NCBI GenBank assembly: GCA_965261395.1
Contig: OZ253462.1
Span: 5,600,001-5,664,000, forward strand
DNA: 64,000 nt
Direction: 5' to 3'
Source: Candidatus Latescibacterota bacterium
Lineage (GTDB): Bacteria > Latescibacterota > UBA2968 > UBA8231
A program made the translations under genes and the position numbers. The notes under the pieces are model-generated. The model was not told where the DNA came from. It saw only the letters and a list, made by a program, of their open reading frames with translations, and made no database searches. Positions 28,934 through 33,035 of the stretch are shown here, piece after piece (position 1 is the stretch's first letter; each line of letters opens with the position of its first letter).

Positions 28934-29093
28934 GTTAGGGATCGCAGGCGTTCACGTACGGGAGGATGGGAGTCCGACGAACCCAACTTCACGCTCCCCT
29001 CTGTCGGCCGCTTCCTGAATGCGAATGACGTCACGCGTCGAGCGCAGCACGGCAGCGGTATCGAGTCCGTTGGCGGGCACTTTGTTAGTTTTT

Positions 29094-30811
29094 TTACTCA
29101 AAGGGATCGCCTCTCCGTCCGCCAAGATATTCGTCTGCAAGTTCTAGAAGCTCATCTGCTCTATCCAGCTTTGCAATTTTCAGACTCTCAATCCGTTCCT
29201 TCAGCGTTGCCTCGTCACCGTAAAGTTCGATCAGTTCATTCCAAGCTAAACGCGGAGAGCGTTGGACTGCCCGGCTTTCCATTGATTGACCTAAGGCTTC
29301 ACTCCGAGCAGCACGAAGCAGAGCTAACGTCAATTTAGGTGAATTGTCGATTGTGAACGGGCTTTCCGATGGACCAGCAGCCTGTTTCATACAAAGAAAA
29401 ATCCTTAAAAGTTCATGCTCATCCGCCAGAGTATCAACCGAGGCTAGTCGCACTTCGTCACGCCAATCCTTCTCAAACTCTGATGCCATTTGTTCCGCTA
29501 CTAACTCATGGCCAACGCCGTCTTGGTACCCGACAATGCTGATCAGTTCCAATTTCGAAGACAAGGACCTCAACTCAGGTAGGATCTGGCGTACTGCTTT
29601 TTCAACTTTAGCAGGGTCATTCAAAGATTTCAAGAGGCGAGAAGAGACATAAGGAACGGCCCGTCTAGAATGCAAATCAAACATGCTCCTCTGTCGCTCG
29701 GGAAGTGGCAAAAGATTAAGCAATACGATCGTTCCCGACACTACGTGTTCTGAGGCGAGCTGTTCCTCGAATACCTCTAACGATATTATAACATCCTGTA
29801 GTTGTGACGGATCGAGAGAACGCAAGTAGTTATCGAAGGCATCACGATCAGCGATGTATTTCCATGCCTGCTCTGCTCCCATAACGGCTTGCAGATTTTC
29901 ATTGGCGATACGCTCCAAGTAAAGCCGCAGAATATCCCCATGTGCGACGCGACGCTCCTTAAGCCATTTATTCTTCCAGCTACTGCCGTAGGCGTTGGGA
30001 ATATTACCAATACAATACTCCCCAACCGGAAAGAGTCTCCTAATCATACTTTCAACGATGTGCCTTTGATCTCTACCGGCCTCGATCAAGCCATTGACCT
30101 GTGCTTTAAGGTGAGTCGGATCGATGAGACCGACAGAGGCGGAATCGGATGTAAGACCGTCAATGGCACCGTGCAAGAGCTTGAAAACGTCTGGAAGGAA
30201 CATGCGAATGGCTTCGAGTGCTAGTAGGTCGGCAAGCTCGATTTGTCCATTAAGGGAGCTTACGGTACCATGGACGGCAGCAGCGTATCGTCTAACATCT
30301 CGCATATTTCGGATAAGTGGCTGGATGATCTCCATACGTATATCTGGCCAGACTTGCTCATCAAACGGGCCGGTATTTTCTATATTGTCAAGGGTTTTAT
30401 CCAAGGCCGAGGTTATCTGCTGGTGAAGCACATGACTAGGCACTACAGGCAAATCAACCACGTCTTGAAGGATTTTCTCAAATAGTCGCGCCCCGGTACT
30501 CCCTGCTCACCAAGTGCCTCTTCGACGCGCTCTCGGTCAAAGGCCACGATATAAATGATATGGGGAAAGTTAGCCGTCAGCCGAACCAGCTTGAAAACGT
30601 CTCGGATTTCAGATGTCTCCAACCGATCAATGTCGTCGAGTATCACTACAATCGGTTTATCGAGATCAGAAAGAGCTTTTTCGAGCTTGCTGCGCTGACC
30701 ACCAACACCTTCTTTCCGATGCTGAAGGAGCTTGCCTGTGATTTTCGTTGCACCGCGAAATCGATCAAGCCATGTACCGACAACAGGCAGCCATCCTATT
30801 GAGTCCTGCAA
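29094..30811 (-). pseudogene. KAP-family P-loop NTPase, 5'-truncated and frameshifted
   Basis: Walker B VVILDDIDRL and FKLVRLTANFP..IYIVAFDR in 30443-30811. The expected DYLEKILQ is split by a 1-nt loss near 30478 and continues in 29094-30461 (RNMRDVRRY). No Walker A present. Confidence 0.85.
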
Positions 30812-30829
30812 ATATAAAGGAATGTTTTA

Positions 30830-30962
30830 CAGTTTAAGTTGTGCATACTTGAAGAAGCCTCTAATCAGGTCGTTATCGTGATGCTGGGCGGTGATCGACA
30901 TGCAGACCGCATCTGCTACGTCGTCGATGTGGTCTGGAATGAAGTTGGCTAGATCGCCATAC
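30830..30962 (-). pseudogene. Orphan 3' gene fragment of unknown identity
   Basis: Open frame YGDLANFIPDHIDDVADAVCMSITAQHHDNDLIRGFFKYAQLKL* directly beside the IS end, with no start of its own. Confidence 0.4.
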
Positions 30963-30965
30963 TTA

Positions 30966-31866
30966 GAGTCTCTAACAAACCCTTTTTATGTCGTTTAGGC
31001 TGATCTATATTCATTTGTTCGGTATTGATGCTACTCCCTTGGTATGGAGGTTTGTTCATGGCCCAGCCCGTACTCGACGATGCGTTATGGGAACTCATTG
31101 AACCGGTTTTACCCCCCGATGTAGCCAAGCCCAAAGGCGGTCGGCCCCCGCTGGATAATCGTCGGGTGCTGACCGGCCTGGTCTTTGTGCTCAAGACGGG
31201 CATCCCTTGGGAGTATTTGCCGCAAGAGTTGGGGTGCGGCTCGGGGATGACCTGCTGGCGTCGGCGGCGGGCTTGGCAGCAAGCCGGGGTCTGGAAGCGC
31301 GTCCACCATATTCTGTTGAACCAACTACGGGCGGCCGACCGGATCGACGGGTCTCGGGCGGTGATCGATAGTGCCTCGGTGCGGGCGGTTGGGGGGGGGC
31401 GCACCCCGGTCCCAATCCGACCGATCGGGGCAAACCGGGCAGCAAACATCATGTAATCACCGATGCACAGGGGGTCCCGTTGGCCGCCAGCGTGACGGGG
31501 GCGCATCGGCATGATGTGACGCAGTTGTTGCCGTTGGTGGATCGCATCCCTGCGGTGGCCGGTCGAGTCGGCCGACCGCGTCGTCGCCCCGATCAGGTGC
31601 AAGGCGACCGGGCCTATGATTCGCAAGCGCATCGGCGCGCCTTGCAAAAGCGGGGCATCGGCGCGGTGTTGGCGCGGCGGGGACAAGCCCACGGCAGCGG
31701 CTTGGGCGTCTATCGGTGGGTGGTGGAACGGACGTTGGCGTGGTTGCATCAGTTTCGGCGGTTACGAGTGCGCTGGGAGCGGCGAGCCGAAATCCATGAG
31801 GCCTTCCTCGACATCGGATGTATACTCATCTGTTGGAACCACCTCAAAGAGTTTTGTTAGGAACTC
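30966..31866 (+). mobile_element. IS5-family insertion sequence (about 900 bp) with split transposase
   Basis: Imperfect terminal inverted repeats GAGTCTCTAACAAA / TTTGTTAGGAACTC; TTA on both flanks (30963-30965 and 31867-31869). Confidence 0.92.
31058..31860 (+). CDS. IS5-family transposase, orfA/orfB joined by a probable -1 frameshift
   Basis: orfA: W.LIEP.LP...GGRP, VLKTGIPW..LP.ELG, IDSASVRA. A G9 run lies at 31391-31399. The -1 frame gives GPNPTDRGKPGSKHH, GDRAYDS and RWVVERT.AWL..FRRL. Confidence 0.9.
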
Positions 31867-32033
31867 TTATAGTACATCCCCTCCATACTCGGGATGTCTA
31901 GGAAGCGCACCTCAATATCAAGTCGTTGGGCTAAGTCGTAGACACAGACGGCGCTATCCAAGCCGTAACCAGCGCTTCTACGCATACGGAGGGCCTTAGC
32001 AACGGCCTGCATAGCGATAGTCTTCCGGTTCAT
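31867..32033 (-). pseudogene. N-terminus of an ImmA/IrrE (CapP-like) metallopeptidase, truncated by the IS
   Basis: Below the ORF-track cut-off. MNRKTIAMQAVAKALRMRRSAGYGLDSAVCVYDLAQRLDIEVRFLDIPSMEGMYY; ATG overlaps the HTH stop (TGATG). The HExxH-containing part is missing. Confidence 0.75.
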
Positions 32034-32380
32034 CACGTTGAGGTGTCCTCTGAAGTCTTTAAAGCTCGAATGAGTTGTAATAGGCGATCAAGGTCTTCAT
32101 CCCTCAGCTTGCTTAACTCGCGAGCCGCAAGCTTTGCTCTATCGCTAGTAGGATCTGACTCATCCTCTCCAGTGATCCAGGGTACGTTTACACCGTAAAG
32201 GTCGGAGAATGCCGATAGTTCCTCGGCCGCTACCTTTCGACGGCCTGCTTCAATCTCGGACACTGTCGGCCTGTGCCATCCTAGGTGTTTGGCAACCTGA
32301 CCCTGAGTGAGCCCGGCCATCTCCCTTGCCAGTCGTAGGCGCGAAGCGATGGTTTGACGGAGTAACTCCTGCTTGTTCAT
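32033..32380 (-). CDS. XRE-family HTH regulator, CapH-like
   Basis: RLRLAREMAGLTQGQVAKHLGWHRPTVSEIEAGRRKV and a C-terminal helix LAARELSKL..EDLDRLL; directly upstream of the peptidase remnant. Confidence 0.85.
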   Translation of the reverse strand: MNKQELLRQTIASRLRLAREMAGLTQGQVAKHLGWHRPTVSEIEAGRRKVAAEELSAFSDLYGVNVPWITGEDESDPTSDRAKLAARELSKLRDEDLDRLLQLIRALKTSEDTST

Positions 32381-32664
32381 ATGACGCTAGCCTCCACATC
32401 CATGATGCTGCATAAGTTGTCTGCGATCTCACTGACTGAGAGATTTCGGTGCCCTTCTTCGGGTAGGAAGACACTGTCAGGTAGGTCTACGCCTAGAGAC
32501 TCAGATAGGATGACCGTAGCTTCGACGCTGCTTAAGCTGTCAAAGCCCTCGACATTTGCGAAAGGGCACGTGTTGGGGCTAATCTCGGCGACCGTCCTCC
32601 CGCTGGTCTCTTGGACCTGCCTAATTGAGTCGGCGACCTTGTCCATAACCTCATTTTTATCCAT
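32377..32664 (-). CDS. Acyl-carrier-protein-like small acidic protein
   Basis: 95 aa from ATG 32664; GFDSLSSVE resembles the phosphopantetheine attachment motif G.DSL; C-terminal SVSEIAD helix; stop overlaps the HTH start (ATGA). Confidence 0.75.
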   Translation of the reverse strand: MDKNEVMDKVADSIRQVQETSGRTVAEISPNTCPFANVEGFDSLSSVEATVILSESLGVDLPDSVFLPEEGHRNLSVSEIADNLCSIMDVEASVI

Positions 32665-32685
32665 ATGCTTCTTCCCTTTTACATG

Positions 32686-32724
32686 TGGTAAGAAAATATT
32701 ACCAATCAAAGCATTGTTTGTCAA
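32686..32724 (-). promoter_or_regulatory. Sigma70 promoter with an overlapping palindromic operator candidate
   Basis: TTGACA (32724-32719)-17 bp-TAATAT (32701-32696); inverted repeat TGGTAA-N7-TTACCA at 32686-32704. Confidence 0.7.
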
Positions 32725-32933
32725 GTCTCACATGCGGGATGTCGCCGTGCACGGTTTTTCGTCTGATTTTGGAAGCCGACGCCCATTGCAGAAAATAGGC
32801 CCATCACCGCGGCCGACGGCGGCCCTCTGGCATGTCCGCTAGCAGGCCGAATGAGATCAGTCTGACTAACAGCCGAATAGTTGGCTGCCCAGCCCGTTTA
32901 AGCCGCATTCATGGCTTGCCTCTCGCGTCGAGG

Positions 32934-32962
32934 TTGAAAGTTCCTTAAGACGGCAATACATT
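32934..32962 (+). promoter_or_regulatory. Sigma70-like promoter of the downstream operon
   Basis: TTGAAA-17 bp-TACATT. Confidence 0.5.
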
Positions 32963-33035
32963 CTTGTGCTGTTTAACTCAGGAGTAGGGCGAGCGGCGGA
33001 TTGCCGGACCACTAGCGGAGAAAGGAGCCTACATA

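Follow-up and report, generated by a model that had tools for sequence, protein, structure and literature searches.

A carrier-protein-like gene heads a CapH/CapP-like repressor-peptidase pair: a candidate three-part regulatory head of a DS-4-like operon, split by an insertion sequence

Why should a gene for an acyl carrier protein (ACP)-like protein stand in front of a repressor gene and a peptidase gene, with no carrier-dependent synthesis pathway beside it? The question was raised by a low-GC island within a 64,000-nucleotide stretch of DNA, the whole of which we call the window. The first-pass annotation had reported no fatty-acid, PKS, or NRPS gene nearby, and Pfam searches of the scanned window ORFs and of related loci indeed found no FAS, PKS, NRPS, or adenylation domain. 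It had also described one promoter and three translationally coupled genes, all of which were present on the minus strand where it had placed them (Table 1). A sigma-70 promoter (TTGACA, 17 nt, TAATAT) lies ahead of three overlapping genes: the start codon of the helix-turn-helix (HTH) gene overlaps the stop codon of the ACP-like gene as ATGA, a sign of translational coupling, and the peptidase gene starts at ATG 32033, overlapping the end of the HTH gene as TGATG. The start of the ACP-like gene was set at ATG 32664, which has a ribosome-binding site (GGGAAG) in front of it, because the alternative 115-aa ORF begins at the TTG of the -35 box. The head operon is beyond chance, since dozens of unrelated loci share both its gene order and its 17-bp operator.

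Table 1. Positions in the window of the head operon and of the features next to it
Feature	Positions	Strand	Basis or remark
-35 box TTGACA	32719..32724	-	Read from sequence
-10 box TAATAT	32696..32701	-	17-nt spacer to -35 box; inside palindrome
Putative 17-bp palindromic operator GGTAATAtttTCTTACC, family consensus GGTAAGAnnnTCTTACC	32687..32703	.	Conserved over -10 box
Acidic ACP-like protein of 95 aa; Ser43 within FDSL	32377..32664	-	Pfam PP-binding, AF2 model, Foldseek
XRE-type HTH repressor, 115 aa, CapH-like	32033..32380	-	HTH_31 5.4e-15; ATGA coupling
M78 ImmA/IrrE-type peptidase, 5' fragment, about 56 codons, IS-cut	31870..32033	-	Family profile match
IS5-family insertion sequence, 901 bp	30966..31866	+	Two transposase ORFs (DUF4096, DDE_Tnp_1)
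IS630-family transposase gene, 3' tail (approximate bounds)	30812..30962	-	Not part of system
PifA-like KAP NTPase pseudogene, C-terminal part, frameshifted	29094..30811	-	Not part of system

The product of the first gene has a pI of 4.05 and a net charge of -13 and carries the motif GFDSL. It matched the Pfam PP-binding profile with 22.5 bits (E 1.4e-4), against a gathering cut-off of 20.8 bits; the orthologue in one related locus (L007) scored 18.3, below the cut-off, a Streptomyces version scored 25.7, and six other divergent versions gave no PP-binding match in Pfam. When its AF2 model (pLDDT 84, pTM 0.74) was compared with the PDB by Foldseek, all 48 of the 48 matches listed, down to rank 50, were carrier proteins or domains (ACP or PCP), with a TMq of 0.49 to 0.68 and a best E value of 3.3e-3 among those listed. 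The model has the four-helix carrier-protein fold, in line with the ACP-like identity that the first-pass annotation had proposed.

Ser43 was kept in 149 of the 150 top representatives and Asp42 in 98%, and the next residue varied; divergent plasmid versions also retained [DN]-S (FNSK, VDSV, LDSY, IDSK, and IDSL). In 48 metagenome loci FDSL is invariant partly by construction, as these were collected with the scan pattern FDSL[SN][GS][VI]EA. A 415-aa representative that looked like a fusion was rejected, its N-terminal part being low-complexity junk from a mis-called start. The holo-ACP synthase gene acpS adjoins three of the nine plasmid loci, all three rhizobial, in two different arrangements, between which AcpS shows 38% identity. 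In 50 genome and metagenome loci, phmmer with three AcpS queries (E up to 10) detected no homologue, and the 60 downstream ORFs gave no match to Pfam ACPS. Ser43 is probably phosphopantetheinylated; the conserved Asp-Ser could also serve a protein interface alone, without modification.

Homologues of the small protein turned out to be linked to HTH-peptidase pairs, as the first-pass annotation had supposed. Among loci that extend at least 250 nt beyond the ACP gene, 47 of 47 had an HTH gene after it, and among those that extend at least 700 nt, 39 of 39 then had a peptidase gene. The next gene encoded a ThyA-like protein (TS1) in 28 of 29 loci, and the one after it an HMUDK_hel protein in 21 of 22; five near-duplicate loci are included in these counts. 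Regulators and cargo were on the same strand and translationally coupled in the metagenome and genome loci long enough to include cargo, and HMUDK_hel and MazG genes were on the opposite strand in two Streptomyces plasmid loci. The nine plasmid loci that carry the triad belong to cyanobacteria, rhizobia, Streptomyces, and Sulfitobacter. In three of those viewed, a papain-like protease opened the cargo instead of TS1, so the ACP travels with the HTH-peptidase pair and not with one enzyme. What follows the triad is not the variable cargo of a defence island: it is a fixed set of nucleotide enzymes (ThyA-like and HMUDK_hel), which some plasmids replace with a set that has a papain-like protease. 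The ACP-like family comprises at least 500 sequence clusters over several phyla, and no relatives were found among 2.9 million viral contigs.

The palindrome over the -10 box was as constant as the gene order. It was present in 40 of 40 upstream regions with at most three mismatches over 14 positions (0, 1, 2, and 3 mismatches in 13, 18, 6, and 3 regions, respectively), a match reached by 0.7% of shuffled sequences, and it was also found in four of the nine plasmid loci, even though their ACPs have diverged strongly. In the window, the palindrome is followed by a third half-site after about 4 nt, and a comparison of upstream regions revealed TTGAC-type boxes at an equal distance in most related loci. 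This conservation suggests that the HTH protein binds the GGTAAGAnnnTCTTACC palindrome.

We then asked which family of repressor-peptidase pairs the other two proteins resemble. CapH joins an N-terminal XRE HTH to a C-terminal region for oligomerisation and cleavage, and it binds the promoter of the operon under its control. The best PADLOC family was capH for the HTH orthologue of L007 (3.2e-12, positions 7-100 of 103) and capP for the peptidase (1.9e-15, profile positions 19-123 of 242), which also matched Pfam Peptidase_M78 (1.5e-15). The PHROGs profiles of phage repressors (phrog_8, 6.1e-16) and metalloproteases (8.4e-16) scored as well as capH and capP or higher, and therefore sequence alone does not separate CapH/CapP from ImmR/ImmA; it is the context that does. 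The zinc site (H80, E81, H84, and E109) was invariant in 24 peptidase sequences. The peptidase model (pLDDT 89) found IrrE (2.1e-6) and ssDNA-bound PprI (6.8e-6) as its best matches in Foldseek, with CapP (7t5t) in the top four, over alignments of 160 to 192 columns, and contains a central helical linker with helices at 123-191. At the C terminus, the model has no GAF domain. In its place, residues 199-267 form eight strands and no helix, a predicted all-beta sandwich with weak matches to chagasin-type inhibitors and cupredoxins; a Sulfitobacter relative matched Inhibitor_I42 at 2e-4, below the cut-off. Since in CapP and IrrE the GAF domain helps ssDNA binding, a peptidase devoid of it may respond to a different trigger. 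An internal cysteine-switch loop occurs in 33% of CapPs; here the loop between HExxH and E109 (pLDDT <50) had no conserved Cys in the 24 sequences. The CapH/CapP resemblance proposed at first pass thus stood as far as the best PADLOC families go, and was weakened by the missing GAF domain, the co-directional genes, and the equal PHROGs scores.

In the fold model of the ACP-peptidase complex, the two proteins were predicted to bind each other, with an ipSAE of 0.84, 0.84, and 0.85 in three runs and 0.00 for the best of three controls. The contacts agreed to 100% between runs, and the pLDDT of the partner was 89. Of 157 solved complexes, 116 reached the ipSAE mark, as did 2 of 215 mismatched pairs; this calibration holds only roughly here, since the runs included a zinc ion and alignments that we had made ourselves. 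We know of no solved ACP-M78 complex, so a pass through memorised structure seems unlikely. The predicted contact residues of the ACP (21-23, 42-45, 47-48, and 50-52) include the invariant family residues S21, D42, S43, L44, and E48, and their mean conservation was 0.65 versus 0.47 elsewhere in the protein; on the peptidase, the predicted interface was not more conserved than the remainder (0.52 versus 0.58). The peptidase residues contacted in the model are in the N-terminal helix, at 122-131, and at 167-168. By their offset from HExxH, they would correspond to the central linker domain where ssDNA packs in CapP and IrrE. The earlier suggestion that the ACP is a dedicated third component thereby gained a predicted contact with the peptidase; what the ACP would do there is a matter for the model set out below.

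As to what the head would control, the genome's own cargo genes matched HMUDK_hel (PF18723, 1.1e-111), Thymidylate_kin (PF02223, 2.1e-17), and Thymidylat_synt (PF00303, 5.1e-23) in Pfam. This set recalls DS-4 ("NTTI") of Escherichia coli, which, in the accessible text of the DefensePredictor article (2026, PMC13092281), is among the validated anti-phage systems and consists of TS, a dNMP kinase, HMUDK_hel, TIR, and Nmad2. The TIR and Nmad2 genes are absent from this genome's operon and present in some relatives (L018 and L022). The likeness of the cargo to DS-4 is the ground on which we attribute a putative defence role to the ACP-HTH-peptidase family.

In this genome, the head is cut off from that cargo. 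Fifty-four complete native peptidase codons precede the IS5-family element, and two more reach into the TTA duplication that flanks it on either side (30963-30965 and 31867-31869). The fragment matched positions 2-61 (E 1.4e-22) of a 288-position profile derived from 24 full-length relatives, and on its own gave no match in Pfam. The remainder of the peptidase (profile positions 58-288) was located on the plus strand at G000:C1:5826921-5827610, followed by the ThyA-like, Tmk-HMUDK_hel, and ThyA-like genes, about 195 kb from the head. The IS5-family element has four full copies in the genome, 100% identical, and the distant peptidase remainder with its cargo lies beside one of them in inverted orientation; an IS-mediated inversion is therefore indicated. 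A simple insertion with matching TTA was rejected, as removal of the element in silico led in frame into unrelated sequence with no HExxH; TTA flanks three of the four copies, so that the matching TTA is uninformative for a simple insertion. These data, from one single-contig assembly, indicate that the operon was cut in two by an IS insertion and an inversion of about 195 kb. One IS5 copy would have jumped into the peptidase gene, and recombination with a second, inverted copy would then have flipped about 195 kb, parting the head (ACP, HTH, and peptidase stump) from the peptidase remainder and the effectors. The system is dead in this genome, and its description as the head of a defence island does not hold here, given the cut peptidase and the distant cargo.

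Two neighbours of the element tell of the same event. A DDE_3 match at L057:7634-8029 breaks off after 131 of the 146 profile positions, precisely where the other IS5 copy lies, and the frame of this IS630-family transposase carries on inside the window; its tail was moved next to the IS5 copy through the inversion. The KAP NTPase pseudogene (Pfam KAP_NTPase, 2e-19, profile positions 127-217; PADLOC PifA, 1.7e-22) was rejected as the cargo of the head, as it is itself split across the IS copies, with its N-terminal part at the other one (L057:6609-7127), and the relatives of the operon have no KAP gene.

On balance, and with moderate confidence, we read the region as the head that regulates an anti-phage operon, one that was acquired horizontally, represses itself, and is split here by an IS; the ACP would be a third subunit dedicated to this switch and would modulate the peptidase. 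The ancestral order would have been promoter/operator, ACP-like gene, CapH-like HTH gene, gene of a CapP/IrrE-like zinc peptidase, ThyA-like gene, Tmk-HMUDK_hel gene, and second ThyA-like gene. The HTH protein, sitting on the 17-bp palindrome over the -10 box, would keep the whole operon off until a signal, which by analogy with CapP, IrrE, and ImmA may be DNA damage or infection, led the peptidase to cut it. Nucleotide-modifying or nucleotide-depleting effectors related to those of DS-4 would then be expressed. The ACP-like protein, probably phosphopantetheinylated on Ser43, would dock on the peptidase via its helix-II/Asp-Ser face and modulate it, most likely by setting or sensing the activation threshold.

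An ACP fold with a conserved Asp-Ser would also suit a true substrate carrier, whose holo form brought an acyl, aminoacyl, or other group to the effectors (ThyA-like, HMUDK_hel, MazG, or papain-like protease) for nucleotide or DNA modification, its adjacency to the regulators being incidental. Phage HMUDK-type pathways do put amino acids and polyamines on thymidine, according to the accessible parts of PMC8989533 and PMC5889632, and acpS adjoins three of our loci. Such a role appears improbable to us, however, since the loci scanned all lacked a loading enzyme (an adenylation, acyltransferase, or ketosynthase domain), and the ACP stays with the HTH-peptidase pair when the cargo switches from TS1 to the papain-like protease. 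The HMUDK_hel systems that have no HTH-peptidase pair, namely, plasmid loci and, in the accessible text on it, DS-4, also have no ACP, and the complex model puts the ACP on the peptidase.

The very acidic character of the family (median pI 4.46, 40 sequences) can be read in yet another way, with the protein as a decoy or guard: a mimic of host ACP that is hit by a phage protein, the loss of peptidase inhibition then triggering the system, or an acidic surface that mimics ssDNA at the peptidase. The latter version would fit the predicted contacts, which seem to map to the linker domain where ssDNA packs in CapP and IrrE. We find a decoy unlikely, as nothing points to a phage factor, and the strict Asp-Ser conservation and acpS neighbours suggest a modified serine rather than a plain mimic.

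Very improbable is an ordinary ImmR/ImmA pair that controls how a prophage, ICE, or island excises or transfers, with the ACP-like gene as a passenger: the PHROGs scores, the low GC content, and recombinase genes within about 5 kb downstream in three loci (L040, L041, and L055) would suit it, but the directly co-transcribed genes are nucleotide enzymes and not excision or transfer genes, the 2.9 million viral contigs yielded no relatives, and the ACP gene belongs to the operon, with translational coupling, and is present in every locus.

The reading of the ACP as a subunit that modulates the peptidase can be taken one speculative step further, to which we give little credence. A phosphopantetheinylated carrier protein would serve an immune peptidase as a subunit that can detach and that senses or inhibits, coupling metabolic state to the induction of a nucleotide-targeting defence operon; its thiol arm might reach the zinc site as a cysteine switch in trans, or its apo, holo, or acyl state might signal that a phage is attacking ACP, or how CoA and lipid metabolism stand. 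If true, the ACP fold would have a regulatory use for which the literature searched offered no precedent. In that literature, which excluded most subscription journals, we found nothing relevant that links an ACP to ImmA, IrrE, CapP, or phage defence.

Peptidase-repressor switches (CapP/CapH, IrrE/DdrO, and ImmA/ImmR) have been described as two-protein modules. In the family studied here, a third component with a carrier-protein fold is fixed and is predicted to sit on the peptidase. Should the serine be modified and the ACP tune cleavage, the expression of bacterial immune genes would gain a new route of input, and the ACP fold a new job. DS-4-type nucleotide systems would gain a defined promoter, operator, and regulator set that is directly testable. 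For this genome the result is more modest, a broken remnant that records the IS-driven loss of a defence operon.

How does the system compare with those already known? With type II acyl carrier proteins (PF00550), the small protein shares the four-helix fold (in its model), an acidic surface, and a helix II that opens with Asp-Ser; it differs from them in its only marginal profile scores, in an extra conserved Q-x-x-S-G-R motif, and in the absence of lipid, polyketide, or peptide synthesis genes nearby. IrrE/PprI with DdrO in Deinococcus and ImmA with ImmR in ICEBs1 and phage phi105 belong to the same family of peptidases that cleave a repressor, but what they regulate is DNA repair genes or the excision of an element, and they lack a carrier-protein partner; in the accessible part of the source on ImmA, its helper is RecA or RapI and not an ACP. 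DS-4 has in common with this operon the thymidylate synthase-like enzyme, the dNMP kinase, and the HMUDK_hel protein, whereas the DS-4 genes listed in the accessible text include no HTH, peptidase, or ACP gene, and the operon of this genome has a second, very divergent ThyA-like gene.

The closest comparison is with CapH, a repressor associated with CBASS, and CapP, a peptidase that ssDNA activates (Lau et al. 2022 and Calloji et al. 2026, preprints). In both systems the repressor is an XRE HTH protein with a C-terminal helical tail (here a putative one), the peptidase is an HExxH...E zinc enzyme with a helical linker, and the pair stands at the head of a defence-type operon. Here, however, a third, ACP-fold gene always precedes the HTH-peptidase pair, the C-terminal domain of the peptidase is a predicted all-beta sandwich instead of GAF, and the cysteine-switch loop has no conserved Cys. 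The regulators are also co-directional with the cargo and in the same operon, whereas those described in the accessible part of Lau et al. (2022, preprint) are divergent, upstream of the regulated operon and on the opposite strand. We infer from these likenesses and differences that ACP-HTH-peptidase is a three-part form of the CapH/CapP-type switches, in which the ACP may act on the peptidase.

The first-pass annotation had described, from the sequence alone, a promoter followed by three overlapping genes for a GFDSL protein, an XRE HTH protein, and the N terminus of a peptidase, and every detail it observed was correct. The ACP-like protein has a pI of 4.05 and a net charge of -13 and lies barely above the Pfam PP-binding cutoff (22.5 versus 20.8 bits). 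A longer, 115-aa reading frame uses the TTG within the -35 box as its first codon, so the ATG at 32664 is the true start. The peptidase gene retains 54 complete native codons before an IS5-family element interrupts it. The GC content at 29000-33000 is 48 to 53%, versus 60 to 68% in the surroundings, and the flanks are ordinary chromosomal genes (epimerase, DUF6807, HlyD-type adaptor, class I tRNA synthetase).

Coordinates of features in the window, elsewhere in the same genome (G000:C1, contig coordinates; L057, its stretch holding the operon remainder), and at related loci
Feature	Location	Strand	Remarks
-35 box, TTGACA	window 32724-32719	minus	canonical promoter ahead of the three genes
-10 box, TAATAT	window 32701-32696	minus	17-nt spacer to -35
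ACP-like gene	window 32664-32377	minus	95 aa; GFDSL
XRE HTH gene	window 32380-32033	minus	HTH_31 5.4e-15; ATGA overlap with ACP-like gene
M78 peptidase gene, 5' part	window, from ATG 32033	minus	TGATG overlap with HTH gene
IS5-family element	window 30966-31866		901 bp; TTA on either side; 3-bp TNA duplications
Other IS5-family copies	G000:C1:3401613-3402518, 3760950-3761850, 5826020-5826923		901 bp; 3-bp TNA duplications
TS1, divergent ThyA-like gene	L057:9514-10419		301 aa; intact, 3' of peptidase remainder
Tmk-HMUDK_hel fusion gene			578 aa; intact, after peptidase remainder; PF02223 2.1e-17, PF18723 1.1e-111
Second ThyA-like gene			339 aa; intact, after peptidase remainder; PF00303 5.1e-23
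PifA-like KAP NTPase gene	window 29094-30811; L057:6609-7127	minus; plus	phage-exclusion family
Repeat pair 1	window 28979-29082; L057:5727-5830		104 bp, 91% identical
Repeat pair 2 (weaker)	window 32862-32922; L057:18635-18698		64 bp, 78% identical
Papain-type sister operons	L076:4055-5742; L077:4908-6585; L070:1096-2675		plasmid loci
Recombinase/integrase genes	L040:14972-16672; L041:14769-16088; L055:7234-8316		metagenome loci; up to ~5 kb downstream of the operon

A simple insertion of the IS into the peptidase gene was rejected, as its removal in silico gave no continuation of the peptidase. A genome search found four full copies of the element (100% identity), and since TTA borders three of the four, the matching duplication in the window is no proof of such an insertion. 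The missing part of the peptidase adjoins the copy beginning at 5826020, which is oriented opposite to the window copy: positions 2-61 of a profile built from 24 full-length relatives match the window, and positions 58-288 match G000:C1:5826921-5827610 on the plus strand. On the far side of that copy, a KAP NTPase gene is represented by its N-terminal part and an IS630-type transposase gene by most of its length. Both continue to the left of the window's IS, where the final residues of the IS630 transposase and a PifA-like KAP NTPase with a frameshift are encoded (PADLOC PifA, 1.7e-22).

The most economical history of this one single-contig assembly is two IS5 insertions and an inversion of ~195 kb. 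The two independent insertions would have come first, and recombination between the inverted copies would then have turned the segment around and broken both genes. This history is supported by two repeat pairs that are inverted now and would have been direct before the inversion; the KAP island and an ~11- to 12-kb ACP-operon island may have their ends at these repeats. The latter also carries a PhyH-like gene, another IS, and a Gp49/HTH toxin-antitoxin-like pair. Three breaks interrupt the KAP NTPase gene: the IS630-type element, the IS5 copy inside it, and a frameshift near 30443-30461. The local copy of the head is an IS-broken remnant, and the first interpretation was wrong in treating it as functional and the adjoining genes as its cargo.

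A word-indexed search returned 44 relatives of the ACP-like protein, of 77 to 98 aa and all unnamed, and a HMMER scan of 1.84 billion representatives gave 852 clusters at an E value of ≤1e-3 and 501 at ≤1e-10; none was found in viral contigs. By the peptidase profile, the operon is present in 2 of 168 genomes of the host phylum and was found in no other genome of the same genus, a distribution that marks the island as horizontally acquired.

Synteny was determined in 50 loci, 2 from genomes and 48 from metagenomes, five near-duplicates counted in. Wherever there was enough sequence, the HTH gene followed the ACP-like gene (47/47 loci) and the peptidase gene followed the start of the triad (39/39). 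TS1 came next in 28 of 29 loci and HMUDK_hel was present in 21 of 22, the sole exception to both being the degenerate-looking locus L044. TS1 itself is very divergent and has no Pfam match, only TIGR03283 (7e-9) and phrog_5131 (4e-5), and with its orthologues keeps a Pro-Cys motif where the ThyA nucleophile sits. Subtype 1, that of this genome, combines the long Tmk-HMUDK_hel fusion with a second ThyA-like gene (5 of 16 loci in which the downstream sequence reaches at least 5 kb); in subtype 2, a short HMUDK_hel precedes MazG/MazG_C, dCTP-deaminase-like, ThsB-type TIR, or Nmad2 genes. Three metagenome loci have recombinase or integrase genes downstream, which fits carriage on small mobile islands. 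The triad also occurs in nine annotated-plasmid loci (Allocoleopsis, Nostoc, Sinorhizobium fredii, three Rhizobium species, two Streptomyces, and Sulfitobacter), in three of which a papain-family protease (PF00112) replaces TS1. HMUDK_hel loci with no adjoining HTH-peptidase pair have no ACP gene beside HMUDK_hel either, examples being TIR/Nmad2-type, DNA polymerase III-linked, and methyltransferase-linked loci and, as far as its published listing goes, the E. coli anti-phage system DS-4; it is thus the HTH-peptidase pair that the ACP accompanies.

In each of the 40 upstream regions, GGTAAGAnnnTCTTACC overlies the -10 box, with no more than 3 of 14 positions mismatched (0, 1, 2, and 3 mismatches in 13, 18, 6, and 3 regions, respectively), a quality of match reached by only 0.7% of shuffled sequences. 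In most cases a third half-site follows ~4 nt downstream. The same site recurs at the cyanobacterial and two rhizobial plasmid loci despite very divergent ACPs, while the Streptomyces and protease-type loci have other repeats instead. By inference, this is where the HTH protein binds to repress the entire operon, its own gene with it.

The model of the ACP-like protein (pLDDT, 84) has four helices, the second of which begins at Ser43, and it matches carrier proteins only, in all 48 PDB entries listed from the best 50 ranks. The serine is kept in 149 of the 150 top representatives and the Asp in 98%, the following residue being variable. The divergent plasmid versions retain [DN]-S. A holo-ACP synthase gene adjoins three rhizobial loci, convergent behind MazG at two and directly upstream on the same strand at one, with only 38% identity between the AcpS proteins of one arrangement and the other. 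These features speak in favor of a modified serine. On the other side, part of the FDSL invariance among the metagenome loci stems from the pattern used to scan for them. The other 50 loci yielded no AcpS, though a host enzyme could take its place there. Alternatively, the conservation could serve binding alone, since the Asp-Ser motif lies inside a predicted interface with the peptidase.

That complex was predicted for the ACP-peptidase pair of the related locus L009, with each chain as a custom alignment plus a zinc ion. The ipSAE was 0.84, 0.84, and 0.85 in three runs, versus 0.00 for the best of three controls; 116 of 157 solved complexes attain the mark, versus 2 of 215 mismatched pairs, a calibration that the custom alignments and the riding ion make approximate, and the score expresses model confidence rather than a measurement. 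Contacts were 100% shared between runs, with a partner pLDDT of 89. The predicted ACP face, the S21-G22-R23 loop and helix II from D42 on, holds most family-invariant residues (conservation 0.65 versus 0.47 elsewhere). The peptidase face comprises the N-terminal helix, residues 122-131 (P122 invariant, K123 near-invariant), and residues 167-168, and is not more conserved than the rest (0.52 versus 0.58). Judged by their offset from HExxH, residues 122-131 and 167-168 probably belong to the central linker domain, which in CapP and IrrE is the part that ssDNA packs against (Calloji et al., 2026 preprint).

The peptidase model (pLDDT, 89; pTM, 0.87) finds its best fold matches in IrrE, PprI with ssDNA, and CapP (7t5t), spanning the peptidase domain and the helical linker, and H80, E81, H84, and E109 are invariant in the alignment. 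Its C-terminal 70 residues are modeled as an all-beta sandwich with weak fold matches to chagasin-type cysteine-protease inhibitors. The Sulfitobacter relative has a sub-threshold Pfam Inhibitor_I42 match and a papain-like protease gene following it, which suggests that the beta domain is a built-in inhibitor of the neighboring protease.

The closest regulatory analogue is CapH/CapP, a repressor-peptidase pair of defense operons (Lau et al. 2022 preprint; Calloji et al. 2026 preprint), and capH and capP are the best PADLOC families for the HTH protein and the peptidase. However, PHROGs phage repressor and protease profiles score on par with them, and two defining features are absent: the C-terminal GAF domain, which CapP and IrrE carry where the triad peptidase has the predicted beta sandwich, and the orientation divergent from the cargo. 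The pair was therefore filed as CapH/CapP-like, within the ImmA/IrrE superfamily, and not as CapH/CapP proper. The proposal of a three-part regulatory head is largely right, apart from the function and cargo of the window copy. In the literature searched, with incomplete coverage, no such switch is described as having an ACP-type partner. The testable lead is that peptidase-repressor switches ahead of DS-4-type effectors include a conserved subunit with an ACP fold and have a defined operator. The cargo of the triad matches the core of DS-4, which DefensePredictor validated in E. coli (PMC13092281); DS-4 as listed there comes without the regulators.
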